Shown: piece by piece, positions 6,700-50,686 of the stretch
Layout: each line of letters opens with the position of its first letter
Position numbering within the stretch: position 1 is the first letter of the stretch
NCBI GenBank assembly: GCA_033763675.1
Contig: JANRJZ010000178.1
Coordinates: forward strand, 1-63,543
Origin: Gemmatimonadota bacterium
Lineage (GTDB): Bacteria; Gemmatimonadota; Gemmatimonadetes; Gemmatimonadales; GWC2-71-9
Direction: 5' to 3'
DNA length: 63,543 nucleotides
Notes under the pieces: generated by a model
Databases searched by the model: none
What the model saw: the letters and a program-made list of their open reading frames with translations, nothing else
What the model was told of the DNA's origin: nothing
Translations under genes and position numbers: made by a program

Positions 6700-6705
6700 C
6701 CGGCC

Positions 6706-7146: not shown

Positions 7147-7181
7147 GGGGGCGTGTTCCTTTCGGGGTGCCCGGGTGAGGG

Positions 7182-7676: not shown

Positions 7677-7843
7677 GAGCGAGTCTCCGGGAGGGGATGG
7701 CTCGGGACCCCGGCCGGGATGACCGGAGCAACTCCCTGTGCCATCGTCGGATAGGCCAGCGCCACGATTTGTGGAGTGCCTACCTGCGCGGTACCTTGCA
7801 CCTGCGGGCTCACCCCCCTCTCACCCAGGTCTCACCGCTCAGC

Positions 7844-32979: not shown

Positions 32980-32998
32980 CGCCGGAAAGCTCCCTGAA

Positions 32999-34461: not shown

Positions 34462-35625
34462 ATGACCGACCCCCGCCGCCGGCACTCCCGGGCGCGCCGT
34501 GCCGCACCGCTCGCGGCGCTGCTCGCCAGCCTCCTCCTCCCCGCCTGCAAGGGGAAGGACGCCGGCGCTACTAGCGAGCCGCCCCCGGGCGCGACCGCCG
34601 ACGGTGACACCGCCGCCGCCTCGGGCAGCACCATCTCGCTGCCGGTCACCGGGGCCCTGGTCCGGCGCGGGGACCTGGTGCTCTCCATTGCCACCACCGG
34701 TCAGGTCCGTTCCGAAGCTGTCGCCCAGCTCAAGGTGGAAACCAACGGCACCGTGAACGAGGTGCTGGTGAAGCCCGGCGCCGTGGTCACCAAGGGGCAG
34801 GTGCTGGTCCGCCTGGATCCACGACCCTTCGACCTCGCCGTCCGCGAGGCGCAGGCCGCCCTCGACGAAGCCAACATCCGCCTCCAGGCCAACCTGGCCA
34901 GCGACTCGATCCTGCTTACTACGACGCAGGACGCCGAGCGGCAGCGGAACGCGGTGGCGCTCTCCGGCGTCCCCGGCGCGCAGGTGCGGCTGGAGCGCGC
35001 TCGGCTCGACCAGGAGCGCGCCACCATCACCGCCCCCTTCGATGGCATCGTGGATCGCATCGAGGTGGCCGCCGGCTCGCGAGTCAACTCGGGACAGGAC
35101 ATCGCCACGGTGGTGGACATGACCCACCTCCGCATCGAGGCCCAGGTGCTGGAGCATGACCTGCCGTTCGTGCGGGTGGGCGGCGAGGCCCGCATCTCCG
35201 CCCCCGCAATGGGCACCGACCCGCTCCGCGGCCGGATCACCGCCGTGCTGCCGCTGGTGGATACCGTGGCCCGCGCCGGTCGCGTGGTCGTGAGCGTAGG
35301 CGCCGGCGGCCGGTCGCCCCTCCGCCCCGGGTCGTACGCCGACCTCCGGCTCGAGGCCGCCCGCCTCCCCGATCGCATCATGGTCCCTGCCGCCGCCGTG
35401 ATCGAGCGCGACGGCCGCCCCCTCGTGTTCGTGGCGAAGGAAGGCCGCGCCCAGTGGGTGTACATCGTCCCCGGCCGGTCCAACGGCAGCGACACCGAGG
35501 TGCTCCCCGATTCCTCCACCGGTGAGATCCCGGTGGCCGTGGGCGACACGGTGCTGACCTCCGGTCACCTGACGCTGACGCACGACGCGCCGGTCCGGGT
35601 CACGCCCGCCGCTTCGCGTCCGTGA
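34462..35625 (+). CDS. RND efflux periplasmic adaptor (MFP/HlyD family), lipoprotein
   Basis: Lipobox LLLPAC. Barrel-sandwich and coiled-coil pattern (V.KGQVLVRLD, L..A.....A...L.RA.L....A.I.APFDG.V). Confidence 0.85.
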   Translation: MTDPRRRHSRARRAAPLAALLASLLLPACKGKDAGATSEPPPGATADGDTAAASGSTISLPVTGALVRRGDLVLSIATTGQVRSEAVAQLKVETNGTVNEVLVKPGAVVTKGQVLVRLDPRPFDLAVREAQAALDEANIRLQANLASDSILLTTTQDAERQRNAVALSGVPGAQVRLERARLDQERATITAPFDGIVDRIEVAAGSRVNSGQDIATVVDMTHLRIEAQVLEHDLPFVRVGGEARISAPAMGTDPLRGRITAVLPLVDTVARAGRVVVSVGAGGRSPLRPGSYADLRLEAARLPDRIMVPAAAVIERDGRPLVFVAKEGRAQWVYIVPGRSNGSDTEVLPDSSTGEIPVAVGDTVLTSGHLTLTHDAPVRVTPAASRP

Positions 35626-38600
35626 GCATCGCCGCCGCGGCGGTCCGGCGCCCCGTCACCACCATCGCCGCCACCCTCGCCCTGGTCCTCCTGGGTGCGG
35701 TGTCACTCGGCCGGCTCCCGGTGGCGCTGCTGCCGGATGTGACCCTTCCCGTGCTCACCATCCGCACCATCTACCCCGGCGCCGCCGCCACCGAAGCCAG
35801 CCGCTTCGTGGCCGAGCCGGTGGAAGAAGCCATCGCCGCCACACCGGGGCTGGTGGAAGTGCGCTCGGTGAGCCGCAACGGGGAGGTCACTACCACCGCA
35901 CGGTTTGCCTGGGGCACCGACATGGCGGCCACGGTGCTCGCGGTCCGCGAGCGGCTGGACAACGCCCGCAGCCGGCTCCCCGAGACCGCCGAACGCCCCA
36001 CCCTGCTCACTTCTGATCCGGGGCAGCGGCCGATCGCCGTGTTAGGCGTCTCCGGCACGGGGGAGCTCCGCTCCACCGCGCTGGTGGCGGAGCAGGTACT
36101 CGCCCGCCGGCTGGAGCAATTGGACGGGGTGGCCAGCGTGGCCGTGACCGGCGTGCCGGAGGACGAGATCCGGGTGGAGCTGGACCCGGCCCGGCTCCGC
36201 ACCCTGGGCCTCACCCCCGACGACGTGGTGCAGGCCATCCAGGCCGCCAACGTGAGCGCCCCCGGCGGGACCATCCGCCGGGGCCAGTTCCGCTTCTCGG
36301 TGCGGGCGCTCACCGAGCTGCGGCGGATCGAGGAGTTCGCCGACATACCCGTCGGCCCGTCGGCCCGTCGGTCCAGCGTCCGCCTGCGCGACATCGGCAC
36401 GGTCTCCCTCGCCACGGCGGAGCCGCGCACCCTCACCCGCCTCGACGGCGGGCCCGGCATCGGGCTCGTGGTGTACAAGGACGCCGGCGCCAATACCGTC
36501 GCCGTCACCCGCGACCTCGAGGCCGCGATCGCGCAGCTGGCGCGGGAGTTCCCCGCCTTCTCGCTGCGGCTGGTGGCGGCGCAGGCCCGCTTCGTGAACG
36601 ACGCCCTCTCCAACCTGACCCAGGAGATCGTGATCGGCGGCGCGCTGTCGCTGCTGGTGATCCTGCTCTTCCTCCGCGACTGGCGCAGCGCCCTCGCCAT
36701 CGGGCTGATCGTGCCGCTCTCGGTGCTGGTCTCCCTGACCGCACTCCAGCTCCTCGGCGTCACCATCAACGTCCTCTCCCTCGGCGGCCTGGCCCTGGGC
36801 GTCGGCCTGCTGGTGGACAACGCCATCGTGGTGGCGGAGGCCAGCGGCCGATTGCGGGAGACCGGCATCCCCCGGGCGCAGGCGGCGCGCGACGCCGCGG
36901 ACCAGGTCATGGGGCCGCTGATCGCCGGGACGCTCACCACGGTGCTGGTCTTCGGGCCGATCGTCTTCGTGCGCGGGCTGGCGGCGGCGCTCTTCCGCGA
37001 CCTCTCGCTGGCGGTGGTGACCAGCCTCGCGGACGCGCTGGTGCTGGCGCTGACGCTGATGCCGGTGATGCTGGCGGGGAGGCGGGACGGCTCGGCGGCT
37101 CGGCGACTCGGCGACTCGGCACCGCGGCCGAGCCGTCCAGCCGCCGAGCCGTCGAGCCGTCTCACCGCCTTTGGTCACCGTCTGGCCGAGTCCTACGAAC
37201 GCGGCATGATGTGGTGCCTCGACCACCCGCGCGCCGTCTTCCTCTCCGCCATCGCCGCGACCGCCGTCGCCGTGGTCCTGACCCTGCGCCTGCCGCGGGA
37301 GATCCTGCCCCAGGTGGACGAGGGGGTGGCCATCGCCACGCTGCGGCTGCCGGAGGGCACAGCCATCGAGGAAACCGTCCGTCAGGCCGCGCGCCTGGAG
37401 TCCGCGGCGCGGGAGCTGGGGGCGCAGGGGCTCTACACCCGCGTCGGCTCCGCCACCGACGAGGAGCTGGTGGCCGGGGCCGAGCCGGGGGGCGCCAACT
37501 TCGCGCAGCTGCTGATTCCGGTGCGCACCGGGCTCCCCGCCGCGCGCTTCGCCGAGGCGCTGCGCCAGAAGATCCCCGACCTGGCGCAGGGGTCGCTCGC
37601 CATTGACCTGGCGGGGCAGTCGGAGTTCGGCAGCCTGATCGGCCGCGAGGGGCGGCTCATGCGGGTGGAGGTGAGCGCTCCCACCGTCACCGAGGCTGCG
37701 CGTTTCGCCGACAGCGTGCAGCACGCCCTCCGCGCCATCCCCGAACTCTCCGACGTGCGCGACGCCTACGCCGGTACCCAGCCGGTGGTGGAGCTGGGGC
37801 TCGAACGGGAGCGGCTGGCGCTCCGGGGCATCACGGTGGACCAGGTGGCCAGCGCCATCGCCGGCGGGCTCTCCGGCGTGGAGGCGAGCGAACTGCGCGA
37901 GACCGACCGCCGCACCACCATCCGGGTGCGTTATGCCGGCGCCGCCAGCGAGGACCTGCAGACCGCCCTGGCCGCCACGGTGGACGGCATCCCGGTGGGG
38001 CAGCTCGTGACCGTGAAGGAGGTGCGGGACCCGGTGGAGGTGGTCCGGGTGGACCAGCGTCCGGTGCAGGTGGTGGAGGCGGCGGTGGAGCGGGGCGGCA
38101 CCGCGCGGGCCGTCAGCTCCATCCAGGACGCATTGGGCCGGCTCAAGGCGCCGGCGGGGCTCACCTGGGAGATCGCGGGGGCGGACATCGAGCAGCGCCG
38201 TACCATGCAGGAGCTGACGGTGGTCGCGGTGCTGTCGGTGGCGCTGATGTTCCTGGTGCTCGCCGGGGAGTTCGCCAGCTTCACCACGCCGCTGCTCGTC
38301 ATGCTGACGGTGCCGCTCGCCGGGGTGGGCGGGATCGTGGTGCTCTGGCTCACCGGCCAGAGCCTCAACGCGGTGTCGCTGATCGGCATGGTGGTCATGA
38401 TCGGCCTGGCGGACAACGATGCGGTGGTCAAGCTCGACGCCATCCGCCGGTTCCGTGCCCAGGGCCACTCGGTCCGCGACGCGGTGCTGCTCGGCGGGCG
38501 GCAGCGGCTCCGCGCCATCGCCATGACCTCGCTCACCACGATTGTGGGTGTGCTGCCCCTGGTCTTCGGCTGGGGCAGCGGCGGCGAGCTGTACCAGCCG

Positions 38601-38759
38601 CTCGCGGCCGGGGTCATCGGCGGCTCCATCACCGCGACGCTGGTGACCTTCTTCCTGCTGCCCACCGCCTACGCCATGGTGGAGCAGCGCGCCGAGCGGC
38701 GGGCCGCGGAACTCGTGGTTGGGCCATCGCCCAATCGCCCAATCGCCCAATCGCCGTGA
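35622..38759 (+). CDS. RND efflux permease (AcrB/MdtB-like), first of a tandem pair
   Basis: 1045 aa with 12-TM AcrB architecture: N-terminal AAVRRPVTTIAATLALVLLG, the LGGLALGVGLLVDNAIVV motif, and duplicated halves. GTGA overlap with the adaptor gene. Confidence 0.9.
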   Translation: MSIAAAAVRRPVTTIAATLALVLLGAVSLGRLPVALLPDVTLPVLTIRTIYPGAAATEASRFVAEPVEEAIAATPGLVEVRSVSRNGEVTTTARFAWGTDMAATVLAVRERLDNARSRLPETAERPTLLTSDPGQRPIAVLGVSGTGELRSTALVAEQVLARRLEQLDGVASVAVTGVPEDEIRVELDPARLRTLGLTPDDVVQAIQAANVSAPGGTIRRGQFRFSVRALTELRRIEEFADIPVGPSARRSSVRLRDIGTVSLATAEPRTLTRLDGGPGIGLVVYKDAGANTVAVTRDLEAAIAQLAREFPAFSLRLVAAQARFVNDALSNLTQEIVIGGALSLLVILLFLRDWRSALAIGLIVPLSVLVSLTALQLLGVTINVLSLGGLALGVGLLVDNAIVVAEASGRLRETGIPRAQAARDAADQVMGPLIAGTLTTVLVFGPIVFVRGLAAALFRDLSLAVVTSLADALVLALTLMPVMLAGRRDGSAARRLGDSAPRPSRPAAEPSSRLTAFGHRLAESYERGMMWCLDHPRAVFLSAIAATAVAVVLTLRLPREILPQVDEGVAIATLRLPEGTAIEETVRQAARLESAARELGAQGLYTRVGSATDEELVAGAEPGGANFAQLLIPVRTGLPAARFAEALRQKIPDLAQGSLAIDLAGQSEFGSLIGREGRLMRVEVSAPTVTEAARFADSVQHALRAIPELSDVRDAYAGTQPVVELGLERERLALRGITVDQVASAIAGGLSGVEASELRETDRRTTIRVRYAGAASEDLQTALAATVDGIPVGQLVTVKEVRDPVEVVRVDQRPVQVVEAAVERGGTARAVSSIQDALGRLKAPAGLTWEIAGADIEQRRTMQELTVVAVLSVALMFLVLAGEFASFTTPLLVMLTVPLAGVGGIVVLWLTGQSLNAVSLIGMVVMIGLADNDAVVKLDAIRRFRAQGHSVRDAVLLGGRQRLRAIAMTSLTTIVGVLPLVFGWGSGGELYQPLAAGVIGGSITATLVTFFLLPTAYAMVEQRAERRAAELVVGPSPNRPIAQSP
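37089..37158. repeat. Inverted pair of octamer arrays (4x GGCTCGGC-type, 6-nt spacer, 4x GCCGAGCC-type) inside the RND CDS
   Basis: ggctcggc ggctcggc gactcggc gactcggc accgcg gccgagcc gtccagcc gccgagcc gtcgagcc. It translates as SAARRLGDSAPRPSRPAAEPSSR, in the TM6-TM7 cytoplasmic linker. Confidence 0.9.
38720..38755. repeat. CGCCCAAT octamer array (about 4 units) forming the last codons of RND-1, immediately before the RND-2 start
   Basis: gggccat cgcccaat cgcccaat cgcccaat cgcc, then GTGA (start/stop overlap). It translates as GPSPNRPIAQSP. Confidence 0.9.
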
Positions 38760-41700
38760 TTACCTGGGCCTCCCGCCGCCCCTCCGTCATCTGGGCCACC
38801 GCCGGCGCGCTGCTCCTCGCCGGCTGGATCTCCTTCACCCGGCTGCCCTTCGCCACCCGCCCTACGGTGGAGCTCCCCCGCCTCACCGTCTCGATGAGCT
38901 GGCCCGGCGCCGCCGCCGAGCTGGTGGAGACCTACCTGGGGAGTCCGATCGAGGCCGCGGTGCAGTCGGTGCGTGGGGTCAAGAAGATCGAGAGCGAGTC
39001 GGGGGAGGGGTACACCCGGCTCGACGTGGAGCTGGAACCCACCGCCAACGTGCAGCTCGCGCGGCTCGGCGTGCTGGAGCGGCTGGAGCTGCTCCGCGCC
39101 GAGTTCCCCCCAGGCGCGTCCGGACTCGAGGTGAGCAACTACGTCCCCGAGGGACTGGATGAGGAGCCGCTCATCAGCTACACGGTGTACGGGCCGTACA
39201 CCGCGGGGACGCTGCAGGACCTGGTGGACCGGCTGGTGGAGCCGCGGCTTGCGGCGGTGGAAGGGGTCTCCGGGGTGAGCGCCATGGGCGGCGCGCTGGT
39301 CGGGGTGGCGGTGGCCTACCAGCCGGAGCGGCTGCGGCAGCTCGGTGTGTCTCCCACGGCGCTGCTCACCGCCATGAACGGCGCCCGGGTGGTGGAGGCG
39401 CTGGGCGTGCAGCTGACGGGATCCACCGAGCGGCGGGTGGTGCTCCGGGAGACGCCAACGGGCCTGGAGGACCTGGCGGCGCTGCTGGTGCCGGGGCCGG
39501 GAGGCCGCGTGTACCGGCTGGACGAGCTGGCGACCATCCGGCGCGAGGAAGACAACCAGGGCCGGCTCTATCGAGTGAATGGGGAGTCCGCGGGGCTGCT
39601 GCAGGTGGCGCGGCTTCCCGGTGCCGACGCTATCCGGACCGCCCGGAGCATCCGCGCCACCCTGAACGACCTGGGCGGCCGGCTTCCCGCAGGTGTCCGG
39701 TTCCAGGTGCTCTCGGATGAGAGTCTCCGGCTGGGCGACCAGCTCTCCGACCTGGTGCGGCGCGGGCTCATCGCCTTTGCCGCCGTGCTGCTGGTGCTCG
39801 CGGTGACGCTGCAGGCGCCGCTCGCGGTCACCTATGTCATGGCGAGCGCGGCGGTGGCCATCGCCGGCACCACGCTCGGCCTGTACCTCCTCGGCATTCC
39901 CGCCAATCTGCTCACGCTGGCGGGGCTCAGCATGGGGATCGGTATCCTGGTGCAGAACGGGCTGGTAGTGGTGAACCGGTTCCGCACGGTGCCGGACACC
40001 GCCGAGGCGCGTGCGCTCGCCGGCTGGCGCATCACGCCGGCGGTGCTCGGTTCGACGCTCACCACCGCCGTGGTGCTGCTGCCGTTTCTCTATCTCCAGG
40101 GCGATGCGCGGGCGGCGTTCACCCCCTTCGCGGTGGCCTTCGCGCTGGCGCTGGGGTGGTCGGTCGTCACCTCGGTGGTGATGCTCCCCGCCATCGGCAG
40201 AGGGCACGGGATGCACGTGGTGCGCTGGCGCCGGTCGGAGCGGGCCTATCGCCGGATGGTGATCGGGCTGCTGCGCTGGCGCTGGGTGACGATCGCCGCC
40301 ACCGTGGCGCTCCTCGCCGGACTGGGCTGGGTGTTCGCGGTGAAGGTGCCCAAGTCGAGCTTCAGCGGCTGGTGGGGACAGCGCACCACCCTCTCCGCCC
40401 GGGTGGATTTCCCCAGCGGCTCCGATCCCACCATGGTGGATGCGGCGCTGCGGGAGTTCGAGCGGATCGCGGCGGGGCAGCCGGGGGTGGAGCGGGTGGA
40501 GGCGCAGGGGATGCCGGATGGCGGCTTCGTGCGGGTGGTGTTCGAGGACGACGCGGCCCGGACCGCGCTTCCCTACCAGATGCAGGATGATTTTACCGCC
40601 CGCGCCACCTTCATCGGTGGTGCCTCGGTGAGCGTGGCGGGGTATGGGCCGGGGTTCGCGTCGGGTGGCTCGGTGGGCTCGCTGCAGAGCTTCCGGATCA
40701 AGATCCTGGGCTACTCGTTCGCCGGGGTAGAGCAGCTCGCGCTCGACCTCAAGGCTCGGCTCGAGGGGATCTCGCGGGTGCGCACGGTGGACATCAACGC
40801 CGCCGGCTTCTGGTTCGGCGGGGAGAAGGCGCGGGACGTCACCCTCACCCCGGACCGGGACCGGCTGGCGAGCTTCGGCCTCACCAGCAGCGACTTCGCC
40901 GGCATCGTGGGGCGGGAGGTCGGCGGCGCGGTGGGCCGCCAGCGGCTGCTGCTGGGAGATGAAGATCTCTGGCTCTCCCTCAAGACCCAGGGGAGCCGGG
41001 AGCGGACGCTGGATCAGTTGCGCGAGGCGCTGCTGCCCAATGACGCCAACGCCCCAGTGCGCGTAGGTGATGTGGCGACGGTCTCCGAGCGTGAGGCGCT
41101 CTCCCGTATCAGCCGCGAGGACCAGCAGTACGTGCGGATCCTGAGCTACGACTTCCGCGGGCCCGCCAAGCTCGCCAACCGGACCCACGAGGCCTTCATG
41201 CGCTCGATCAGCGTCCCCGCCGGCTACACCGTGAGCGACGAGTACTTCGGCTGGGTGGACGACCAGAGCCAGAAGGGACTCTGGCTGGTCTTCGCGGTGG
41301 GGCTGGCGCTGGTGCTGCTCACCGTGGCCATGGTCTTCGATTCCGCCTGGGGCGCCGCGATGGTCTTCCTCAGCCTGCCGATCGCGCTGGCCGGCGTGGT
41401 GGTGGCCTTCTGGGCCACCGGCACCGCGTTCACCCGGGAAGCCGCGGTAGGGGTGATCCTGGTGATCGGCCTCGCGGTGAACCAGGCGATCCTGCTGGTG
41501 GATGGCATCCTGGCTCGCCAGGCGGCGACGCCGTTGGCGCGCACGGCCGTGCGCGCCAACGCCATCGTCGCCGCCTGCCGGGACCGGGCCGGCATGATCA
41601 CCCTCGTCACCCTGACCACCCTCGCCAGCCTGATCCCGCTGGCCGTCGGGACCAGCACCACCGACCTCTTCGGCGCCATCGCGCTGGCCACCGCCGGCGG

Positions 41701-41761
41701 CACGGTGGCCGGCACCATCGGCGCGATGTTCCTGCTGCCGCCGATGCTGGTGAGGCGGTAG
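38756..41761 (+). CDS. RND efflux permease (AcrB/MdtC-like), second of the tandem pair
   Basis: 1001 aa with AcrB-family architecture (GLSMGIGILVQNGLVVV, duplicated halves). GTG start overlapping the RND-1 stop. Confidence 0.9.
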   Translation: MITWASRRPSVIWATAGALLLAGWISFTRLPFATRPTVELPRLTVSMSWPGAAAELVETYLGSPIEAAVQSVRGVKKIESESGEGYTRLDVELEPTANVQLARLGVLERLELLRAEFPPGASGLEVSNYVPEGLDEEPLISYTVYGPYTAGTLQDLVDRLVEPRLAAVEGVSGVSAMGGALVGVAVAYQPERLRQLGVSPTALLTAMNGARVVEALGVQLTGSTERRVVLRETPTGLEDLAALLVPGPGGRVYRLDELATIRREEDNQGRLYRVNGESAGLLQVARLPGADAIRTARSIRATLNDLGGRLPAGVRFQVLSDESLRLGDQLSDLVRRGLIAFAAVLLVLAVTLQAPLAVTYVMASAAVAIAGTTLGLYLLGIPANLLTLAGLSMGIGILVQNGLVVVNRFRTVPDTAEARALAGWRITPAVLGSTLTTAVVLLPFLYLQGDARAAFTPFAVAFALALGWSVVTSVVMLPAIGRGHGMHVVRWRRSERAYRRMVIGLLRWRWVTIAATVALLAGLGWVFAVKVPKSSFSGWWGQRTTLSARVDFPSGSDPTMVDAALREFERIAAGQPGVERVEAQGMPDGGFVRVVFEDDAARTALPYQMQDDFTARATFIGGASVSVAGYGPGFASGGSVGSLQSFRIKILGYSFAGVEQLALDLKARLEGISRVRTVDINAAGFWFGGEKARDVTLTPDRDRLASFGLTSSDFAGIVGREVGGAVGRQRLLLGDEDLWLSLKTQGSRERTLDQLREALLPNDANAPVRVGDVATVSEREALSRISREDQQYVRILSYDFRGPAKLANRTHEAFMRSISVPAGYTVSDEYFGWVDDQSQKGLWLVFAVGLALVLLTVAMVFDSAWGAAMVFLSLPIALAGVVVAFWATGTAFTREAAVGVILVIGLAVNQAILLVDGILARQAATPLARTAVRANAIVAACRDRAGMITLVTLTTLASLIPLAVGTSTTDLFGAIALATAGGTVAGTIGAMFLLPPMLVRR

Positions 41762-41932
41762 GCGGGGAATCGCCTGGCAACTCCGCAGCACCACCTTCGC
41801 GCCATGGACCGGCCTGTGAGTATCATCCGGGCAGCAACCAGTGATGCGGGCACACTGACGGCGAACAGGGATGCGACGATACACATTGCTGACCACACAG
41901 CGAGCGCTCGTGTGCGGGAACCTGGGCGCGGT

Positions 41933-43060
41933 GTGACTCAGAACAGGCTCGTCGGGATCCTGGGATCCGTGGGGCTTCTGGCCGGCTGCTCTTCAGATCT
42001 GACTGACCGCGCCCGAGCGTTGACGAGCGACCCCCACGTCCACCCCAACCCCGCCTACGTGGACCAGTCGCTCAAGCCTGCCTGGTCGGTAGGCATGGGC
42101 GACCCACCCGTCATCCTTGGATTCTCGCTGGGGCGGACCCTGGCCCCGCGCGGGGACGTCGAGGGAGTCGGGGATGATTCCATCGGCCGGATCGCCGACG
42201 GGCTCATCCTCCCTGCCGGCGAGATCCTCCTTGTAGATGATGCTCTGCAGGTGCTTTGGCGGTATGGCCCGGACGGTGCCCAACGACAACTCATCGGCCG
42301 TCCCGGACAGGGCCCCGGCGAGTTTCGAGGTCCACGATCCGCCACGATGGTGCGGGGCGCCCTGGCCGTCCTCGACGCCGGGATCGGCCTGCAGTTCTTC
42401 GTCCCCGCCGGGGATGGATTCACGTTCTCGAGAGGGGTCCGTCTCACGCTCGAAGCGGATGACCTCTGTGTCCTAGATTCAGCGCTGGTGGTGCAGGGAA
42501 CTGCTGCAGGTCTTCCTATCCTTCACCTCTTCTCGCAGCAGGGCGAATTGAACCGCTCCTTCGGTCAGATCTACAACTCCCCAAATATCAGCATTAACGA
42601 GGCCATCGGAAGCACCGGTCGCCTGGTGTGTGACGGCGACAACAAGCTGGTGATCTATGCACCGCGAGGCGCCCTGGGAGAGGTCCGTGCCTACCGGACT
42701 GACGGCACACCCGTGTGGCGCACCATCTTTGCCAACTTCAGGGCGAACCGTATGGAGGACCATCCGGGAGGCTGGAGGGTCACGGTCTCCCCAGATGGTG
42801 TCCACAGCCTCCATGCACTCACCGCTATCCCTGGACGGGGGCTGCTGGTCCAGTGGACCTACCGTACCTATGACGAGATCGTGGCCCGCGCCTCTTACGG
42901 CACCATCCTGAGCTACCTGCTGAATCCGGTGACGGGTGAGCCGATCGGGCCCGATACGACCCTTCCCCCAATCCTCGCGGCGACCGACTCGACCGTGCTC
43001 GTCGCCTATGAGGATCCTGAGCCTCGCTTCGAGGTTCGCGCCCTGCTGCCGCGGCGGTAA
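41933..43060 (+). CDS. Beta-propeller-like lipoprotein (copy 6)
   Basis: The GTG at 41933 gives VTQNRLVGILGSVGLLAGC (lipobox). GRPGQGPGEF motif. The C-terminal ~60 aa are nearly identical at protein level to copy 8. Confidence 0.7.
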   Translation: MTQNRLVGILGSVGLLAGCSSDLTDRARALTSDPHVHPNPAYVDQSLKPAWSVGMGDPPVILGFSLGRTLAPRGDVEGVGDDSIGRIADGLILPAGEILLVDDALQVLWRYGPDGAQRQLIGRPGQGPGEFRGPRSATMVRGALAVLDAGIGLQFFVPAGDGFTFSRGVRLTLEADDLCVLDSALVVQGTAAGLPILHLFSQQGELNRSFGQIYNSPNISINEAIGSTGRLVCDGDNKLVIYAPRGALGEVRAYRTDGTPVWRTIFANFRANRMEDHPGGWRVTVSPDGVHSLHALTAIPGRGLLVQWTYRTYDEIVARASYGTILSYLLNPVTGEPIGPDTTLPPILAATDSTVLVAYEDPEPRFEVRALLPRR

Positions 43061-43081
43061 AGGCGGAAACTCGCCGTGATC

Positions 43082-43186
43082 GCCGTCGGGCTCCTGCGGC
43101 GCCCTCGCGCTGGCCCCCGCGGCGGCACCGTGGCCGGCACCATCGGTGCGATGTTCCTGCTGCCGCCGATGCTGGTAAGGCGGTAG
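43082..43186 (+). pseudogene. Degenerate copy of the last ~100 nt of the RND-2 gene (includes its stop codon)
   Basis: Aligns by eye with 41642-41761 (gccgtcggg ... ggccggcaccatcggtgcgatgttcctgctgccgccgatgctggtaaggcggtag), with a few substitutions and a short deletion. Confidence 0.8.
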
Positions 43187-43236
43187 GGCGGGAAGGGCGG
43201 TAGGGGGCAGTAAGGAGCTGTAAGGGTGAGTGGTTA
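43174..43236. repeat. G-rich 8-nt periodic array (GGCGGTAG / GGCGGGAA / GGGGCAGTAA... family)
   Basis: ggtaaggc ggtagggc gggaaggg cggtaggg ggcagtaa ggagctgt aagggtga. The same arrangement occurs at 45663-45722. Confidence 0.7.
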
Positions 43237-43408
43237 GTCGGCTTGCGCCCAAACCCAAGTCAGGGCTGCTGTACGAATCTTGGCACTCGTGACAACATGG
43301 CGGGGGGTGATCCTAACTTCTAACTTGCTGGTGGCTAGCAACTCTGATTTTACTGGCTCAAGGCTCCCTGACTCGAAGGCCGCTCGCGGCGCCACCGGGG
43401 AGGTAGGG

Positions 43409-44014
43409 ATGCCCCTGCTCAAGTCTCTGGCCCGGCTCGTCGGGTTCCTGCTGCTCGGCTCCGCGTCCTTCGCCATTGCCCACACCCTTGCCAGCGACGC
43501 TCGGGCGCAGCGAGTCGCAGCGACGCGGCATGCTGATTCCCTCGCAACGCGCGATGGTCCGAGCCTCCTCGTTGTCTACATTGGCTCGTCGCGGTGCCCG
43601 TGGTGCCGGGATCCGAAGCTCCCGGGTCTCCTGGAGGCAGTCCATGGATGGGCGATGGCCTACGCCGAGTCTCATGGCATGGGTTATCGCATGGTAGGTC
43701 TGGCGGTTGACCGGCAGGCAGAGTCGGGGCTTGACCACCTTCGCCGAGTCGGGCCGATGTTCAGGGAGGTATCAAGTGGAGGGGAGTGGCAGGGGCTTGC
43801 TGTAGGACCCCTCTTCTCGGGCGCTGGTGCCTCCCGGCCGGGGACGCCACAAGTTCTTGTGATGGCAAGGGATATCCGGCGGGTGGAGTCGGATAGCGGT
43901 CCCAGCACCATTGAGATAACCGGGCAGCGTGTCCTGTTGCGCCTTGCGGGCCTGGACGAATTAGAGCGCTGGGTGCAGGTGAACGCCAAGCCGCGAACGG
44001 GCCGTACGATGTAG
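43409..44014 (+). CDS. Membrane-anchored thioredoxin-fold-like protein with a CPWC motif, module B copy 1
   Basis: 201 aa. N-terminal anchor LARLVGFLLLGSASFAIA. LLVVYIGSSRCPWCRD resembles a Trx-fold CxxC active site preceded by a beta-strand. GGGGAGG Shine-Dalgarno. Paralog at 45891-46523. Confidence 0.6.
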   Translation: MPLLKSLARLVGFLLLGSASFAIAHTLASDARAQRVAATRHADSLATRDGPSLLVVYIGSSRCPWCRDPKLPGLLEAVHGWAMAYAESHGMGYRMVGLAVDRQAESGLDHLRRVGPMFREVSSGGEWQGLAVGPLFSGAGASRPGTPQVLVMARDIRRVESDSGPSTIEITGQRVLLRLAGLDELERWVQVNAKPRTGRTM

Positions 44015-44099
44015 CGCAGGTCGCAAGGACCGACCGGTCCGGGATGCACCCGGGTGATGCCGTCTATGCAGTTATGCTCAATCATTCAGGAGGTGGACG

Positions 44100-44318
44100 A
44101 TGTGGACCAGACTTGAAATTCCAACGGGCCGTGTAGCGGTTGCGATTGCACTGGTCGGTGCATTGCTCGGAGTCATCGTGGGCGCCAGTCCCGCGCGTGC
44201 GGAGGGGCAATGCCCCAACATGAAGTGTGAGAACAAGCAGTGTCTTCCAGGTGGCAATCGCTGGTGCACGCACCACAGCGGGGAGGATGGCGGCTACTGC
44301 TCCACTACGGCCTGCTGA
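44100..44318 (+). CDS. Secreted 6-Cys mini-protein precursor (72 aa), module B copy 1
   Basis: Strong AGGAGG Shine-Dalgarno 6 nt upstream. Signal-like MWTRLEIPTGRVAVAIALVGALLGVIVGASPARA, then EGQCPNMKCENKQCLPGGNRWCTHHSGEDGGYCSTTAC. The paralog at 46644-46856 has the same Cys spacing. Confidence 0.7.
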   Translation: MWTRLEIPTGRVAVAIALVGALLGVIVGASPARAEGQCPNMKCENKQCLPGGNRWCTHHSGEDGGYCSTTAC

Positions 44319-44359
44319 TCCCCGGGGGTACTGGGGTCGTGACCCGCAACCACGCGCAA

Positions 44360-45484
44360 ATGCATCGCGCTGTGATCGGGCTGGTAGGGCTCGCCACCGC
44401 GCTGACATGTTCGCCGGTGCCCGACGGCGGGGAGAGTCGACCCGGGGGGACGGCCGTCCTGCACCACCCCGAGGCTCGTTGGGTGGATACCTCGATTGGA
44501 GTGGGTTTCACGATTCCCCTGGATGCTCCGGGCGATCCGGGAGCCCTCCGACTTGGTGCAGGTGCTCAGGGAGGGTGGGGCACTGAGGCCGACGCCCCGG
44601 AGCACGCAATCGGCCGGATTTACAAGGTGCTCCTCCTGCCAGATCGAGGCGTGGTCATAGTGGATGATCGGTCACAGGTCGTCCGCGTGTATGCCTCTTC
44701 GGGGAGACCACAACAAGTCGTCGGTCGCGCGGGTCAGGGCCCTGGGGAGTTCCGCCGACCCCTCTCCGCCGCTATCGATGGAATGGGTCGTCTCTACGTG
44801 TCGGATACCAATCGGCGCATTCAAGTGTTTGTACCCTCCGGAGGGGAGTATCACTACGAGCGGACACTGACCCTGGAGGTGGAGGCCCAGGACATGTGCT
44901 TCCTCGGAGATAATCTCGTTGTGCAGGGCTTGTCGCTCGCTCGGCAGGCTCTCATCCATATCTTCGACGAGGACGGGAAGCTGGTCCGGTCATTCGGTGC
45001 ACTCTACCGTTCACCCAGCCCCGACATGAACGAGGAGTTCGGTCTGGGTCGTATCTCATGTGACGGGAAACGAGGCCTCATCTACTATGCCCCCCGAATC
45101 GGGATCGGAGAGGTTCGTGCGTTCGAGGCCAGTGGCACACCGAGCTGGCGCACCGCGTTCTCGGGTTTCCGCTCCAATCCGTGGGTTTCCGAGAACCGGA
45201 CCCTCACCACCCGGCTCTCTCGTAACGGGAATCACACCCTGATTACCCTCGTGCTCGTGGAAGGGCATGGGCTCCTGGTCCAGTGGACCTTTCGAACCTG
45301 GCAGCAATTGATGGACGAGGACAGTTTCGGCTCCACGGTAAGCTTCCTGCTAGATCCCGCCACGGGGGAGCCTCTGGCACTGGGTAACGGCCTTCCGCTC
45401 ATACCGGCCATCGGTGCCGCACGAGCGGTTGCGGTGTACGAAGATCCGGTCCCCCGCTTCGAGCTCCGGGCAATGCTGCCATAG
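44360..45484 (+). CDS. Beta-propeller-like lipoprotein (copy 7), module B copy 1
   Basis: I chose the start at MHRAVIGLVGLATALTC (lipobox). The track ORF starts at 44240, overlapping the peptide gene, and that extension is probably not translated. GRAGQGPGEF motif. Confidence 0.68.
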   Translation: MHRAVIGLVGLATALTCSPVPDGGESRPGGTAVLHHPEARWVDTSIGVGFTIPLDAPGDPGALRLGAGAQGGWGTEADAPEHAIGRIYKVLLLPDRGVVIVDDRSQVVRVYASSGRPQQVVGRAGQGPGEFRRPLSAAIDGMGRLYVSDTNRRIQVFVPSGGEYHYERTLTLEVEAQDMCFLGDNLVVQGLSLARQALIHIFDEDGKLVRSFGALYRSPSPDMNEEFGLGRISCDGKRGLIYYAPRIGIGEVRAFEASGTPSWRTAFSGFRSNPWVSENRTLTTRLSRNGNHTLITLVLVEGHGLLVQWTFRTWQQLMDEDSFGSTVSFLLDPATGEPLALGNGLPLIPAIGAARAVAVYEDPVPRFELRAMLP

Positions 45485-45525
45485 CGGTAGCGACGGTAAC
45501 GACGGTACCGTCGCTACTAGTCGTC
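45483..45525. repeat. CGACGGTA-family array with a central 14-nt perfect palindrome (cgacggtaccgtcg)
   Basis: agcggtag cgacggta acgacggta ccgtcgct actagtcg. Read directly, immediately after the propeller stop. Confidence 0.75.
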
Positions 45526-45556
45526 CGCTTCAACCTTGATAACCGTCGCCGTGAGC

Positions 45557-45674
45557 GCCGTCGGGCTCCTACACCGACCTCTTCGGCGCCATCGCGCTGG
45601 CCACCGCCGGCGGCACGGTGGCCGGCACCATCGGCGCGATGTTCCTGCTGCCGCCGATGCTGGTGAGGCGGTAG
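45557..45674 (+). pseudogene. Copy of the last ~100 nt of the RND-2 gene (includes its stop codon)
   Basis: From caccgacctcttcggcgcc to ggtgaggcggtag I count about 103 consecutive nt identical to 41659-41761. Confidence 0.9.
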
Positions 45675-45722
45675 GGCGGTAAGGCGGTAGGGGGTTGTAA
45701 GGGGCTGTAAGGGTGGGTGGTT
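45663..45722. repeat. G-rich 8-nt periodic array (GGCGGTAG / GGCGGTAA family)
   Basis: gtgaggcg gtagggcg gtaaggcg gtaggggg ttgtaagg ggctgtaa gggtgggt. Homologous to 43174-43236. Confidence 0.7.
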
Positions 45723-45890
45723 AGTTGGCTGGTGGCCAAACCCAAGGCAGGGCGGCTGTACGGATCTCGGCACTCTTGACAGCATGGGGGGGGTCCTAAC
45801 TTCTGACTTGCAATTGACTAGCAACTGTGATTTGCTGCCCCAAGGCTACCTGACCCGAAGGGCGCTCGCGGCGCCACCGGGGAGGTCTGG

Positions 45891-46523
45891 ATGCCCCCGC
45901 TCAAGTCTCTGGCCCGGCTCGCCGGGTTCCTGCTGCTCGGCTCCGTGTCCTTCGCCATTGCCCACACCCTTGCCAGCGATGCTCGGGCGGAGCGAGTCGC
46001 AGCGACGCGGCATGCTGACTCCCTTGCAACGCGCGATGGTCCGGGCCTGCTCGCCGTCTACATTGGCTCGTCGCGGTGCCCGTGGTGCCGGGACCCGAAA
46101 GTCCCGGTGCTGCTGCGGGAGATTCACGCCCGTATGATCGCCCTTGCGGACTCCATTGGAGTCGGATATCGAATGGTTGGATTGGCGGTTGACCAGCAAC
46201 CAGAGCCGGGTCTCGGCCACCTTCGTCGCGTCGGGCGCATGTTCAACGAAATGTCCAGCGGTGGTGAGTGGCAAGGACTGGCGGTCTCCCCCTTGCTCTG
46301 GGGTGCATTGTCAGGTGAGCCCGGCACGCCGCAAGTGATCCTCCTCCGCCGAACGGTGCGACGGATGGTGCCGGACAGCGGACCGGTACGGTTCGAGATC
46401 GCGGATGAGATGGTGTTGCGGCGCTTGGTGGGGCTGAATGCCATTGAACAGTGGGTCAACGCGGGCCAGGTGCTGGGGACCGTCGGCTTCTCGCAACCAC
46501 AGGGCGTGGCTTTCTCCCAGTAG
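45891..46523 (+). CDS. Membrane-anchored thioredoxin-fold-like protein with a CPWC motif, module B copy 2
   Basis: 210 aa. The first ~70 codons are nearly identical at nucleotide level to 43409-43620, and the remainder is diverged. LLAVYIGSSRCPWCRD. Confidence 0.6.
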   Translation: MPPLKSLARLAGFLLLGSVSFAIAHTLASDARAERVAATRHADSLATRDGPGLLAVYIGSSRCPWCRDPKVPVLLREIHARMIALADSIGVGYRMVGLAVDQQPEPGLGHLRRVGRMFNEMSSGGEWQGLAVSPLLWGALSGEPGTPQVILLRRTVRRMVPDSGPVRFEIADEMVLRRLVGLNAIEQWVNAGQVLGTVGFSQPQGVAFSQ

Positions 46524-46643
46524 TGCCTCGGAGCTGACCCGGGCGTTGATGGCCCGGAAGGTTCGGGCGACACCAACCAAGTTCCCATGCAGTTGTTCGC
46601 CTCGTAAGTTGCGCTCGACGCAGTCTACCACGGAGGTAGGGCT

Positions 46644-46856
46644 ATGTGGACCCGACTTGGGATGTCCTCGGTGAAGGTCATGGTATTGGCAGTCCTCGTG
46701 GGCGGTGGGCTGGGCGCTCTCGTCGGAGCATTGCCACTCGCGGCCGAGGAGACGTGCCCGCAACTTCAGTGCCTCTACGGGTACTGCCAGCCAGGTGGTG
46801 GTGCCACCTTTTGCTGGCACGTCGGCAGTGAGGGATGCATTCTCCAGGTCTGCTGA
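46644..46856 (+). CDS. Secreted 6-Cys mini-protein precursor (70 aa), module B copy 2
   Basis: GGAGG Shine-Dalgarno 7 nt upstream. MWTRLGMSSVKVMVLAVLVGGGLGALVGALPLAA, then EETCPQLQCLYGYCQPGGGATFCWHVGSEGCILQVC. Confidence 0.7.
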   Translation: MWTRLGMSSVKVMVLAVLVGGGLGALVGALPLAAEETCPQLQCLYGYCQPGGGATFCWHVGSEGCILQVC

Positions 46857-46862
46857 GGGCGA

Positions 46863-48002
46863 TTGGTGCGCCCGCCACTGCTACGCTGTTGGCTGAGCTG
46901 CGTCCTGTTCGGTGGTTCGATTGCGTGTGCCGATGGTAGCACGGGACGCGCGGACAATGCCGGATCAGGCCGGATGCATCCAGTCGAGCGGTATGTCGCC
47001 AGCGATATGCCTCCGTCTTTCAGCACGGCGCTGGACGGGGCCAACACGACTCTCCCTTTCCGCTTGGGGACACAGGCCATCGCGGCATCCCCAACCGGCG
47101 GGGCGGGCGCCGAGTCACCCATCGGCCGCATCGCGAGGGGTGCGCTCCTGGCCTCGGGCGACATCGTGGTGCTCGACGACGGCGCCATGGTGGCCCACTT
47201 GTATGGCCCCGATGGCACTCCGAAAGCCCTCATTGGAAAGCCAGGCTCGGGTCCCGGCGAGTTTCGACGGCTGATCGCCCTCACGGAGGCGGCCGATGGC
47301 GGGCTGCTGATCTCAGACGCCGACCGGGTCGTGCAGCGCTACTCCCCGGCGGGGCCCGGATATCGATTCGTCGGGGACATGCGGCTACCCGTGGACGCCG
47401 AGGACATGTGCCGCCTCGGCGCTAACCTGGTCGTCCATGGACTGACCGCCGCCGATCCGAGATTGCTTCGAGTCTACCGTGACTCAGGCGGCCAGGTTAG
47501 TACCTTCGGCGAGTACTATCGTTCACCAAGCCCGCTGGTGAACGAGGTGCTGGGCAAGGGTAGGATCCTCTGCGAACCGACCCGAGACCTGGTGGTGTTC
47601 GCCCCCAATAGCGCCGTGAGTGAGGCACGGGCCTTTGGTGCCGACGGCACCCCGGTGTGGCGTGTCGTGTTTCGGGGAAGCCGAGCCGACCGGATCGAGG
47701 AAACTGAAGGCGGTTACAGCTGGAAGTTCTCCACCGATGGCCGACACCAGCTGCTGAGTCTCGTGCGACTCCCTGCTCGAGGAATCCTGATCCAGTGGAC
47801 CTTCCTCACCCGTGAGGAGGCCGTGGCCCGAGCCTCCTACGGTACGATCCTCAGCTTCCTGCTCGATCCGGTAACGGGTGAGCCTATCGGGCCCGATACG
47901 ACTCTCCCGCCAATCCTCGCGGCGACCGACTCGACCGTTCTCATCGGATACGAGGATCCGGAGCCCCGCTTCGAAGTGCGGGCTCTTGAACCGCGACGCT
48001 AA
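46863..48002 (+). CDS. Beta-propeller-like lipoprotein (copy 8), module B copy 2
   Basis: TTG/GTG start giving LVRPPLLRCWLSCVLFGGSIAC (lipobox-like). GKPGSGPGEF motif. The C-terminus ARASYGTILSFLLDPVTGEPIGPDTTLPPILAATDSTVLIGYEDPEPRFEVRALEPRR is close to copy 6. Confidence 0.7.
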   Translation: MVRPPLLRCWLSCVLFGGSIACADGSTGRADNAGSGRMHPVERYVASDMPPSFSTALDGANTTLPFRLGTQAIAASPTGGAGAESPIGRIARGALLASGDIVVLDDGAMVAHLYGPDGTPKALIGKPGSGPGEFRRLIALTEAADGGLLISDADRVVQRYSPAGPGYRFVGDMRLPVDAEDMCRLGANLVVHGLTAADPRLLRVYRDSGGQVSTFGEYYRSPSPLVNEVLGKGRILCEPTRDLVVFAPNSAVSEARAFGADGTPVWRVVFRGSRADRIEETEGGYSWKFSTDGRHQLLSLVRLPARGILIQWTFLTREEAVARASYGTILSFLLDPVTGEPIGPDTTLPPILAATDSTVLIGYEDPEPRFEVRALEPRR

Positions 48003-49210: not shown

Positions 49211-50686
49211 ATGCCTCGGCTGATCCCGCCCGCTGGTTGGGCCATTCTTCTGGTCCTGACCGCCTGCGCGCCCGCCTTGCCGGGGCCGCCGGGGGCTCGC
49301 CCCGTCGCCACTCGCCCCGACACCCTCTGGGTCCCGAAGGAGAATCCGCCGGCGCCGGGCGCCGGGCGGTCCGCGGTGCTGTCCGACCTCCCCCCGGAGC
49401 TGGTCGCCCGCCGGGCGGCGCTGACGCTCGAGGACGTGGTCGGGCTGGCACTGGAAGGGAACCCGGATGTCCGGGGCGCCTGGGCCACCGCGCGATCCCG
49501 CGCCGCCGCCTACGGCGCCGCCCGCGGGGCCTGGTTCCCCACCATTAATGGAGAGGCCAGCGCCACCCGGCTCCAGACCTCCGCCACCCAGGGCCGGTCC
49601 GCGGTGCAGCAGACGGTCTATGAGCCAAGCGCTTCCTTTACCTGGTTGCTGCTGGATGCCGGCGGCCGCGGCGGCTCCATCGCCGCGGCGCGAGAAGGGC
49701 TCATCGCCGCCAACTGGACCCACAACGCCACGCTGCAGTCGGTGGTGGCCCGGACCGCCGGCGCCTACTTCGAGTACGCCGCCGCCAAGGCGCTGCTCTC
49801 CGCCCAGCAGGTGTCGGTGCGGGAGGCGGAGACCAACCTGGCCGCCGCCGAGGAGCGGCGCCGGGTGGGTGTCGCCACCATCGCCGACGTGCTCCAGGCC
49901 CGCACCGCGCTGGCGCAGGCCCGGCTGGATCTCCAGAGCATCGAGGGAAACCTCTTCACCACTCGCGGCGCCCTCGCCGCCGCCACCGGCTACCCCGCCA
50001 CCCTCGAGTACGACATCGACACCACCGCCGTGCTCAATCCGGTGCTCGCGGTGGCGGAGCAGGTGGATACCCTGATCGAGCGGGCGCTCACCGCCCGGCC
50101 GGACCTCGCCGCCTCCCGCGCCCTCTACCAGCAGGCGTGGGCCCGGATCCGGGTGGCCGGCGCGGGAAGGCTTCCTTCATTAGTAGGTGGTGGCAACGCC
50201 GGGATCGCCTTTCAGCCGGGGCAGAGCGGCGGGCGCCAGGCGTACACCGTATCCCTCGGCCTCCGGCTCCCGATCTTCAATGGCTTCAGCTGGGAGTACC
50301 AGCGCGCCCAGGCCGTGGCGGATGCGGACGCCGCCCGCGCCCGCGCCGAGAGCCTGCAGCAGCAGGTGATCTACGAGGTCTTCAGCGCCTACTACGCGCT
50401 GCAGACCGCGACCCTGCGCGTGGCCACCGCCGACGAACTGCTCACCAGCGCCACCGAGTCCGCCGCGGCCGCCCGCGGCCGCTATCAGTCGGGGGTGGGC
50501 TCGCTGCTCGAACTGCTCACCGCCGAGAACGCCCTCGCCGGCGCCCGCGCCCAGCGGATCCAGGCGCGGCTCGGCTGGCAGGCCGCGCTGGTGACGCTGG
50601 CCCGGAACGCCGGCGTGCTCGATCTTCGGGGCGGGAGCACGCTCCGGCTCCAGCCCCAACTCGCTCCAACCGACAGTCAGCCATGA
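49211..50686 (+). CDS. Outer-membrane efflux lipoprotein (NodT/OprM family OMF)
   Basis: Lipobox LLVLTAC. Two OEP repeats with typical LTLEDVVGLALEGNPDV and coiled-coil Ala-rich segments. Confidence 0.85.
   Translation: MPRLIPPAGWAILLVLTACAPALPGPPGARPVATRPDTLWVPKENPPAPGAGRSAVLSDLPPELVARRAALTLEDVVGLALEGNPDVRGAWATARSRAAAYGAARGAWFPTINGEASATRLQTSATQGRSAVQQTVYEPSASFTWLLLDAGGRGGSIAAAREGLIAANWTHNATLQSVVARTAGAYFEYAAAKALLSAQQVSVREAETNLAAAEERRRVGVATIADVLQARTALAQARLDLQSIEGNLFTTRGALAAATGYPATLEYDIDTTAVLNPVLAVAEQVDTLIERALTARPDLAASRALYQQAWARIRVAGAGRLPSLVGGGNAGIAFQPGQSGGRQAYTVSLGLRLPIFNGFSWEYQRAQAVADADAARARAESLQQQVIYEVFSAYYALQTATLRVATADELLTSATESAAAARGRYQSGVGSLLELLTAENALAGARAQRIQARLGWQAALVTLARNAGVLDLRGGSTLRLQPQLAPTDSQP

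Follow-up and report, generated by a model that had tools for sequence, protein, structure and literature searches.

Six-cysteine peptides of a Gemmatimonadota contig belong to an undescribed family encoded beside beta-propeller and thioredoxin-fold proteins

The window analysed here is a 63,543-nucleotide stretch of DNA from a Gemmatimonadota bacterium (contig JANRJZ010000178.1, positions 1 to 63,543) with a G+C content of 70%. It contains, 3' of a gene for a resistance-nodulation-division (RND) transporter, an array of genes in the order propeller A, Trx-like 1, P1, propeller B, Trx-like 2, P2 and propeller C (Table 1). The propellers are predicted six-bladed beta-propeller proteins of the NHL/DUF5128 type, the Trx-like proteins have a predicted thioredoxin (Trx) fold, and P1 and P2 are short precursors in which a hydrophobic leader is followed by a module with six cysteines. 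P1 and P2 are loop-divergent members of a mini-protein family that is both undescribed and uncurated.

P1, P2 and the six-cysteine peptide family

The original prediction had picked out the P1 and P2 open reading frames (ORFs) for their shared leader and cysteine framework, and the translations bear this out. Shine-Dalgarno sites precede both genes (AGGAGG 6 nt 5' of the P1 ATG and GGAGG 7 nt 5' of the P2 ATG), and both products begin with MWTRL and run through a charged n-region, then an extended apolar segment, to six cysteines; as described, each peptide ends on its final cysteine, the codon of which is directly followed by the stop codon. The six-cysteine spacing that had been given stands with one correction, as loop 3 of P2 (QPGGGATF) has eight residues and not seven; the framework of the two peptides is C-x4-C-x4-C-x7/8-C-x7/10-C-x4-C. 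Identity between P1 and P2 is 0.49 in the leader and 0.23-0.25 in the non-cysteine core. The statement that almost every core residue differs is correct in its direction but too strong, as seven or eight core positions are identical (E35, P39, P50, G51, G52, H59, G61 and G64). The net charge predicted from sequence is about -1 for P1 and about -3 for P2. A search of the window with a relaxed six-cysteine pattern returned P1 and P2 only, with no third copy, and near-identical orthologues of both are present in independent metagenomes.

The wider family was reached by an exhaustive profile search of 1.84 billion protein representatives, which returned at least 201 clusters (50% identity) at E<=1e-3. 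Searches for the peptides with a word index had given near-identical orthologues only, with signal-peptide words swamping the candidates. The family statistics below rest on the 153 matches listed, on 155 sequences for leader and charge counts, and on 148 aligned sequences, in which P1 and P2 stand with 146 relatives. P1 and P2 score E values of about 3e-14 and 5e-14 against the family profile. Such a homologue search had been set beforehand as the refuting test for the two genes; it shows conserved coding sequence and all six cysteines invariant across the 148 aligned sequences. In an earlier alignment of 18 peptides from related loci the six cysteines were the sole invariant residues.

All 153 listed matches have between 60 and 146 residues and carry the six-cysteine framework. 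The four-residue spacing of Cys1-Cys2 and of Cys5-Cys6 is held in 152 of them, and the other three loops vary. P1 and P2 conform to the family pattern, in which a Sec-type leader precedes the cysteine framework C-x4-C-x(4-13)-C-x(8-9, rarely 7)-C-x(6-11)-C-x4-C, placed close to the C-terminus. A K/R-containing n-region and a hydrophobic h-region are present in 154 of 155 leaders, and a small-x-small site follows in all 155. Two other export routes were considered and rejected: the leaders of P1 and P2 lack a lipobox, so they are not lipoproteins, and the loose RR-x-hydrophobic pattern expected for twin-arginine translocation occurs in 14 of the 155 family leaders and in neither P1 nor P2. As in P1 and P2, the final cysteine is the last residue in 21 of the 153 listed members.

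Most members share the loop consensus CE.DEC...C.DN.G..T.C....C.TY.C, and 125 of 155 have a net charge of -3 to -9 from Cys1 to the C-terminus. The corresponding segments of P1 and P2 read CPNMKC and CPQLQC, CLPGG and CQPGG, and STTAC and ILQVC; their 'CP' start is a minority feature, with proline after Cys1 in 14 of the 153. Pfam and NCBIfam scans of the 148 family peptides gave no consistent family, and members that are named in source records appear as 'hypothetical protein'. We found no published description of the system in the literature on DUF5128, NVEALA, Gemmatimonadota cysteine-rich peptides, NHL with TlpA, or Bacteroides six-bladed propellers.

The fold prediction proposed for the peptides gave a confident model of P1 and no solved relative. 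The AlphaFold2 model, built on the 148-sequence alignment, has a core predicted local distance difference test score (pLDDT) of 93-95, with a leader helix at residues 9-27 and four short strands; Foldseek comparison of this model with the PDB gave no match at E 3 or below.

The loops had been read as hypervariable through diversifying selection, and this part of the original prediction is not supported. Amino-acid variants in the P1 orthologue group number four in the leader and one in the core; in the P2 group there are seven at six leader positions and five in the core. Comparison of window and orthologue codons gives one non-synonymous and two synonymous changes in each core, which are few counts, and four non-synonymous and five synonymous changes in the P1 leader. 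The orthologue substitutions, few in number, point to purifying selection. The proposed comparison of non-synonymous and synonymous rates (dN/dS) is informative to this extent between orthologues; between P1 and P2 it carries no selection signal, because synonymous sites are saturated (proportion of synonymous differences, pS, 0.60-0.76). In the non-cysteine core of this pair the proportion of non-synonymous differences, at 0.60, is close to pS, at 0.54, and the loops have drifted to near-randomness over long time. The leader is better conserved than the core in four of 11 within-locus paralogue pairs, from three independent loci, and between loci the two are equal (0.23 and 0.22); in addition, orthologue cores are kept and the loops have a family consensus. 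These sequence comparisons, in which the counts are small, argue weakly that P1 and P2 are not the products of rapid loop diversification. We note that conserved cysteines with variable loops in two paralogues do not constitute evidence of diversifying selection.

The peptide, propeller and Trx-like genes in other genomes

The two Trx-like proteins have roughly 205 residues. In the Trx-like model (pLDDT 82) a thioredoxin fold comes after a long helix at the N-terminus. Foldseek retrieved thiol-disulfide oxidoreductases that are membrane-anchored or periplasmic, and their relatives (a Geobacter thioredoxin, DsbE, CcmG, ResA, DsbF and Sco), with a best E of 1.8e-5 at probability 1.0; the top 20 matches span E 1.8e-5 to about 2e-3 and probability 0.92-1.0, with TM-scores of just 0.28-0.50. 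The CPWC motif lies directly after the strand at residues 52-61, and the first cysteine and the TPQ loop, at the expected cis-proline position, are invariant in the Trx-like alignment. The Trx-like genes that accompany the peptide family encode YIGSS(R/T)C-x-x-C/S. At the active site the window lineage has C-x-x-C (CPWC), as do Bacteroidota and low-GC copies (CGYC or CGFC), and most Gemmatimonadota copies have C-x-x-S (CGPS, CGWS, CNPS, CRWS and CYWS). A nucleophilic cysteine without a resolving cysteine would fit an enzyme that works through mixed disulfides, in isomerase or proofreading chemistry. Among the window proteins and the proteins of related loci, the Trx-like sequences had no Pfam, NCBIfam or PDB sequence match; judged with the predicted model, the Trx-like protein is a new sequence family with a thioredoxin fold. 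Assignment as a Sco-like copper chaperone was rejected, as the CxxxC/His motif is absent.

Propeller B matches Pfam DUF5128 ('6-bladed beta-propeller') at 29.2 bits, against a cutoff of 22.9, and also an NHL repeat. Taken singly, propellers A and C fall below the Pfam thresholds; the profile built from A, B and C together retrieved PDB NHL domains at E 2e-18 and, weakly, PDB 4raa, a 'putative exported protein'. The propellers have roughly 370-375 residues, and in a three-way alignment B and C are 40-48% identical to A; the pairwise alignment of B and C gives 37% identity. Across the three window copies and 18 relatives, two cysteines (in the contexts 'D.C' and 's.G...C') and an N-terminal 'HP' are kept in at least 85% of propellers. 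From these sequence features we assign the propellers to the NHL/DUF5128 six-bladed class, with a predicted lipoprotein signal in some copies and an ordinary signal peptide in others. When scanned with Pfam, NCBIfam and PADLOC, the window proteins gave no family except DUF5128/NHL for the propeller, and Pfam and NCBIfam scans of related-locus proteins gave only DUF5128/NHL, for propellers, and CarboxypepD_reg/Plug, for TonB-dependent receptors.

Among homologues of the cassette proteins, the nearest one with a name is from a 'Gemmatimonadetes bacterium' metagenome-assembled genome. Distant Trx-like homologues (28-38% identity) led to loci in which small ORFs lie beside a DUF5128 propeller gene. 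Thirteen loci came from a genome scan with the Trx-like alignment, every one of them in Gemmatimonadota (Longimicrobiales, Gemmatimonadales, Palauibacter and Gemmatimonas phototrophica), and metagenomes added five more; there are 24 distinct loci in all, from Gemmatimonadota, Bacteroidota/Rhodothermaceae and a genome of 42% GC. The propeller gene lies immediately 5' of the Trx-like gene in every one of the 21 mapped loci, and 18 of these have at least one six-cysteine peptide gene. Two of the remaining loci (L021 and L027) are short contigs that end inside the propeller gene, and in L022 no peptide gene was seen. The commonest order is peptide, propeller, Trx-like, at times followed by a second peptide. 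The trio is also found in two contigs of 50% GC that are related to each other and were assigned to Bacteroidota/Rhodothermaceae, and in the 42%-GC genome (L039), where all other neighbours are housekeeping genes; because of this housekeeping context the trio looks self-sufficient. In a Longimicrobiales locus (L020) a signal peptidase I gene lies directly 3' of the module.

In a Palauibacter locus (L028:4485-5912) a single in-frame ORF encodes a signal peptide, a cysteine module (YCEDDTC...SCTTYLC) and a full propeller, and in no frame does the propeller part have a start or signal peptide of its own. We infer from this 'Rosetta-stone' arrangement that module and propeller may act jointly. Because the fusion keeps Cys1, 2, 5 and 6 and the x4 spacings are invariant, the sequences suggest a Cys3-Cys4 bond in the peptide, together with a pair of bonds that would link Cys1 and Cys2 to Cys5 and Cys6. 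In two Longimicrobiales loci (L019 4587-5315 and L020 4643-5350) the cysteine module is joined to a C-terminal domain of about 150 residues that is unrelated and has no Pfam match.

The two Bacteroidota/Rhodothermaceae contigs (L037, at 3867-10098, and L038) have IS110-family transposases and duplicated small genes flanking the module. The Rhodothermaceae peptide pair, the one striking case of leader conservation besides the window pair, shares a 59-residue leader that is 100% identical, with cores at 67%; given the IS110 transposases and gene duplicates of the region, this contrast could instead mark a recombination boundary.

The array in the window and its variation between strains

The array contains the trio twice, and propeller A has no peptide gene directly upstream. 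Ahead of each of the two Trx-like genes the 3' end of the RND gene recurs as a 111-nt copy, with 97% identity in one case and 75% in the other. The real start of propeller A is probably a GTG near 41933, ahead of the lipobox; for propeller B, a start at the alternative GTG 44240 would make the gene overlap P1. An Rfam scan of the whole window gave no match, and a scan of the cassette for sigma-70 promoters and terminators gave nothing above shuffled expectation.

Table 1. Features of the array and its upstream neighbours in the window. A slash within a motif marks the predicted cleavage position.
Feature	Position	Strand	Remarks
Upstream RND genes	35622..38759 and 38756..41761		4-nt overlap
True 3' end of RND transporter gene; reference copy of 111-nt direct repeat	41659..41769	+	Bounds the extra block
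Propeller A, NHL/DUF5128-type six-bladed beta-propeller lipoprotein (predicted)	41804..43060	+	Lipobox LLAG/C
Degenerate 75% copy of RND gene 3' end	43084..43194	+	Between propeller A and Trx-like 1
Trx-like 1, N-terminal membrane helix and periplasmic TlpA/ResA/CcmG-like thioredoxin fold (predicted)	43403..44014	+	YIGSSRCPWC, TPQ loop
P1 precursor, 72 residues	44100..44318	+	ORF, translation, family profile, structure model
P1 mature six-cysteine module, 38 residues	44202-44315		Leader is residues 1-34; predicted cleavage ARA/E
Propeller B	44360..45484	+	Pfam DUF5128 above threshold, NHL repeat match
97% copy of RND gene 3' end	45572..45682	+	Right-hand boundary of 3.97-kb block
Trx-like 2 (CPWC)	45891..46523	+	67% identical to Trx-like 1
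P2 precursor, 70 residues	46644..46856	+	ORF, translation, family profile
P2 mature six-cysteine module, 36 residues	46746-46853		Leader is residues 1-34; predicted cleavage LAA/E
Propeller C	46863..48002	+	Starts 7 nt 3' of P2 stop

Comparison with close relatives shows that part of the array is variable. In six relatives (L001-L006, 90-94% identity), window position 41765 is followed immediately by 45731, and the 3.97-kb block 41766-45730, with propeller A, Trx-like 1, P1 and propeller B, is absent. An independent assembly from another sample (L007, 99.9% identity) spans the junction of propeller B and Trx-like 2, which confirms the order of the array in the window. The position of the 97%-identical RND 3'-end repeats suggests that the block was gained or lost by recombination between them. 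In one further relative (L013, 236-841) the Trx-like 1 orthologue was called as two ORFs of 112 and 85 residues, possibly through pseudogene formation or misassembly.

The base composition of the array also differs from its surroundings, with a G+C content at third codon positions (GC3) of 0.70-0.75 in the cassette genes (41804-48002) against 0.85-0.96 in the remaining window; a second low-GC3 patch, at 31854-34189, has two ORFs of 131 and 444 residues. The two cassettes are mosaic, with 83-96% identity over the first 500 nt or so and 40-60% thereafter. Identity is 81-96% between 43123-43600 and 45610-46090, which comprise the upstream region and the first 85 Trx-like codons; accordingly divided, Trx-like 1 and 2 are 81% identical over their N-terminal 85 codons and 57% over the remainder. 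In propellers A and C it is the last 85 codons (42828-43060 and 47770-48002) that are alike, at 78% identity, against 39% for the rest. As cassette identity is mosaic in this way, the window copies are likely to be old paralogues on which recombination or gene conversion has acted locally.

The neighbourhood of RND genes and cassette appears specific to the window lineage. On the 3' side of the cassette, ORFs at 49211-54872 match an outer-membrane factor and an RND pump of the relative L001, in which an adaptor gene lies between the genes for these two proteins.

Interpretation and comparison with known systems

We propose that P1 and P2 are Sec-exported mini-proteins with three disulfides that are folded by the Trx-like protein and act with the propeller, and we hold this to be slightly the more probable side of the question. 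The leader would carry the peptide across the inner membrane and would be cut after the A-x-A site, as read from the sequence. The Trx-like protein would be anchored in the membrane with its CxxC or CxxS motif facing the periplasm, where it could form, shuffle or proofread the three disulfides; its fold and motif are evident from model and alignment, and the peptide is the candidate substrate by co-occurrence. The folded module would then bind the propeller at the envelope, most likely as a small subunit or ligand, as gene linkage and the one propeller fusion suggest.

Several observations sit uneasily with this proposal. We infer the partnerships of the peptide with the propeller and with the Trx-like protein from sequence and gene context. 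The window has three propellers against two peptides and two Trx-like genes, which is not one to one. Relatives of the Trx-like protein such as TlpA, ResA and CcmG are typically reductases, and it might itself work as an oxidase, an isomerase or a reductase. P1 and P2 lack the acidic consensus (CE.DEC, C.DN.G) and could behave unlike typical members. Their apolar h-region, at 18-19 residues (within the leaders encoded at 44100-44201 and 46644-46745) against a family median of 11, resembles a membrane anchor more than it does a typical cleaved signal, and the peptides might have a tethered form. The propeller fusion was found once, and its cysteine module is degenerate, with Cys1, 2, 5 and 6 only. 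TonB-dependent receptor genes (CarboxypepD_reg with Plug) adjoin the module in six loci (L014, L021, L022, L023, L024 and L030), and genes for regulators or for proteins like extracytoplasmic function (ECF) sigma factors lie near it in four (L022, L024, L025 and L026); these variable neighbours hint at functions outside our proposal.

The original prediction had likened the peptides to bacteriocins, toxins and pheromones, for which we found no positive evidence. In its most developed form, this explanation, which we consider unlikely, takes the peptide for a disulfide-containing bacteriocin or toxin exported by Sec, with the propeller lipoprotein for immunity or self-protection and the Trx-like protein as the accessory for its disulfides. 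It would account for the combination of a signal peptide with a small disulfide-rich core, for several divergent paralogues per locus, for leaders that are better conserved than cores in the window pair (0.49 vs 0.23) and the Rhodothermaceae pair (1.00 vs 0.67), and for a strain-variable copy number in an island of atypical composition. Dedicated thiol-disulfide oxidoreductases do adjoin bacteriocin genes, as in sublancin with BdbB and pediocin with PedC, and lipoprotein immunity proteins of the LanI type exist. However, most of the mature peptides are strongly acidic, at a net charge of -3 to -9, and not cationic, their orthologue cores are conserved with a consensus in the loops, and Sec export alone would end in the periplasm of a diderm cell. 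The loci have no ATP-binding cassette (ABC) exporter, secretin or known immunity family, one of them has housekeeping neighbours only, and there was no match to PADLOC or bacteriocin models. For the members fused to a propeller or to the 150-residue domain, a free diffusible toxin is also improbable. The neighbouring receptors and regulators listed above would suit a role in envelope signalling or uptake, in which the peptide is a ligand, either a signal or a carrier of a nutrient or metal, that is caught by the propeller and passed to a TonB-dependent receptor or ECF-sigma system; in typical members, conserved acidic, Asn, Gly and Thr residues of the loops could provide a cation site. We regard this as distinctly unlikely, as such neighbours are absent from most loci, including L039 and the window, where RND operons flank the array; P1 and P2 do not have the acidic consensus, and no anti-sigma or transducer domain was seen.

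The propeller could instead be an enzyme that modifies the peptide, of the NHL-fold lyase, cyclase or oxidase kind, as in ribosomally synthesized and post-translationally modified peptide (RiPP) pathways, with the Trx-like protein keeping the cysteines reduced or paired. Six-bladed NHL-type propellers include peptide-processing enzymes, and the lyase domain of the peptide-amidating enzyme is listed among the structural relatives of NHL domains (PMC6107167). Tight gene linkage and the two cysteines kept in the propellers would fit such a role. We nevertheless judge it a little more improbable still: the loci contain no known RiPP enzyme (radical S-adenosylmethionine, YcaO or LanM), RiPP precursor models gave no consistent match, and no conserved C-terminal glycine or other obvious modification handle is present. 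Furthermore, a Sec signal in place of a recognition leader would move the chemistry outside the cytoplasm, and a look at the propellers that did not go into depth identified no metal-ligand motif. That the two ORFs are chance or non-coding, with a coincidental cysteine pattern, has a vanishingly small probability. Short ORFs are suspect in a GC-rich genome, which abounds in spurious ones; the family-wide six cysteines and signal peptide, the synteny, the ribosome-binding sites and the excess of synonymous over non-synonymous changes in orthologue cores all speak against chance, and the homologue searches refute it.

Extending our proposal, the trio may be a previously unrecognised envelope system in which the mini-protein is an exchangeable specificity element of a propeller receptor or enzyme; we offer this wider reading tentatively, at somewhat less than even chances. 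It would apply to Gemmatimonadota, Bacteroidota and possibly other phyla, with paralogue arrays and variable cassettes giving different peptide-propeller pairs. If correct, bacteria would have peptide-receptor or peptide-enzyme pairs of a new class, equipped with their own folding catalyst, and DUF5128 propellers would gain a first functional handle. Independently of this reading, two anonymous small ORFs now represent a sizeable family that has no curated-database or published description, and the fixed three-gene context makes the function of this family testable. DUF5128 propellers and an unclassified thioredoxin-fold family gain a concrete candidate substrate or partner, and poorly studied phyla yield a compact three-disulfide scaffold that is predicted with confidence. 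A Gemmatimonas phototrophica metagenome-assembled genome carries the module, and the phylum has a cultured member.

Comparison with known small disulfide-rich proteins gives partial likenesses. The peptides resemble epidermal growth factor (EGF) modules in having six cysteines within about 35-40 residues, in the C-x4-C-x5-C-x8/9-C spacing and in a C-x-D/N...G...C loop like that of calcium-binding EGF, and weak, non-significant profile alignments place their cysteines in register with the EGF modules of factor IX and COX-2. Membership of the EGF family was rejected: E values were 0.13 with the 18-sequence profile and 4-5 with the 148-sequence profile, the C4-x-C5 doublet is absent (the C4-C5 spacing is 6-11), and there was neither a Pfam EGF match among the 148 peptides nor an EGF match by Foldseek. 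The DUF5128 or 'BF3164-like' propeller lipoproteins of Bacteroides belong to the same Pfam propeller family as those described here. Bacteroides DUF5128 propellers are often found beside small signal-peptide proteins called 'NVEALA', which may be an analogous pairing (we found no papers on DUF5128/NVEALA); unlike our peptides, NVEALA proteins are not six-cysteine proteins, and no Pfam model matched any of the 148 peptides. Sublancin with BdbB and pediocin with PedC likewise place a small exported cysteine peptide beside a specialised catalyst of the thioredoxin fold. Peptides of this type, made by monoderm hosts, are cationic or amphiphilic and pair a double-glycine leader with an ABC exporter or have immunity genes that can be recognised, whereas the module peptides are acidic, Sec-dependent, encoded by diderms, paired with propellers and sometimes fused to them.

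Two further systems link a thioredoxin fold to a propeller. In the mau gene cluster for methylamine dehydrogenase the order is mauB, mauD, mauA, and MauB, the heavy subunit, has a propeller fold. The enzyme's light chain is MauA, and MauD is needed for the six disulfides of methylamine dehydrogenase (bioRxiv 10.64898/2026.03.05.709764). In NHLRC2 and its bacterial homologues, a TlpA-like thioredoxin domain and an NHL propeller are joined in one chain (PMC6107167). The trio has the same coupling of a TlpA-like thioredoxin fold to a six-bladed NHL propeller; unlike NHLRC2, it has SSRC-x-x-C/S in place of the CCINC motif, separate genes, a putatively membrane-anchored Trx-like protein and the six-cysteine peptide as a third component.

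The mau comparison has limits of its own. MauA has 12 cysteines in about 130 residues and a tryptophan pair for its quinone cofactor, whereas the peptide module has six cysteines in 33-60 residues; a MauA-like quinoprotein subunit was rejected, since the peptide family has no conserved tryptophan. MauB is seven-bladed and the module propeller is six-bladed, of the NHL/DUF5128 type, and the loci contain no mauE or mauG and show no detected sequence similarity to methylamine dehydrogenase. In its arrangement, however, the mau cluster sets side by side a propeller, a dedicated thioredoxin-fold CxxC protein and a small exported protein dense in disulfides, and its order of propeller, thioredoxin and small protein fits the canonical order of the family. 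By this likeness, the methylamine dehydrogenase cluster may be taken as the closest working analogy for the peptide, propeller and Trx-like trio.

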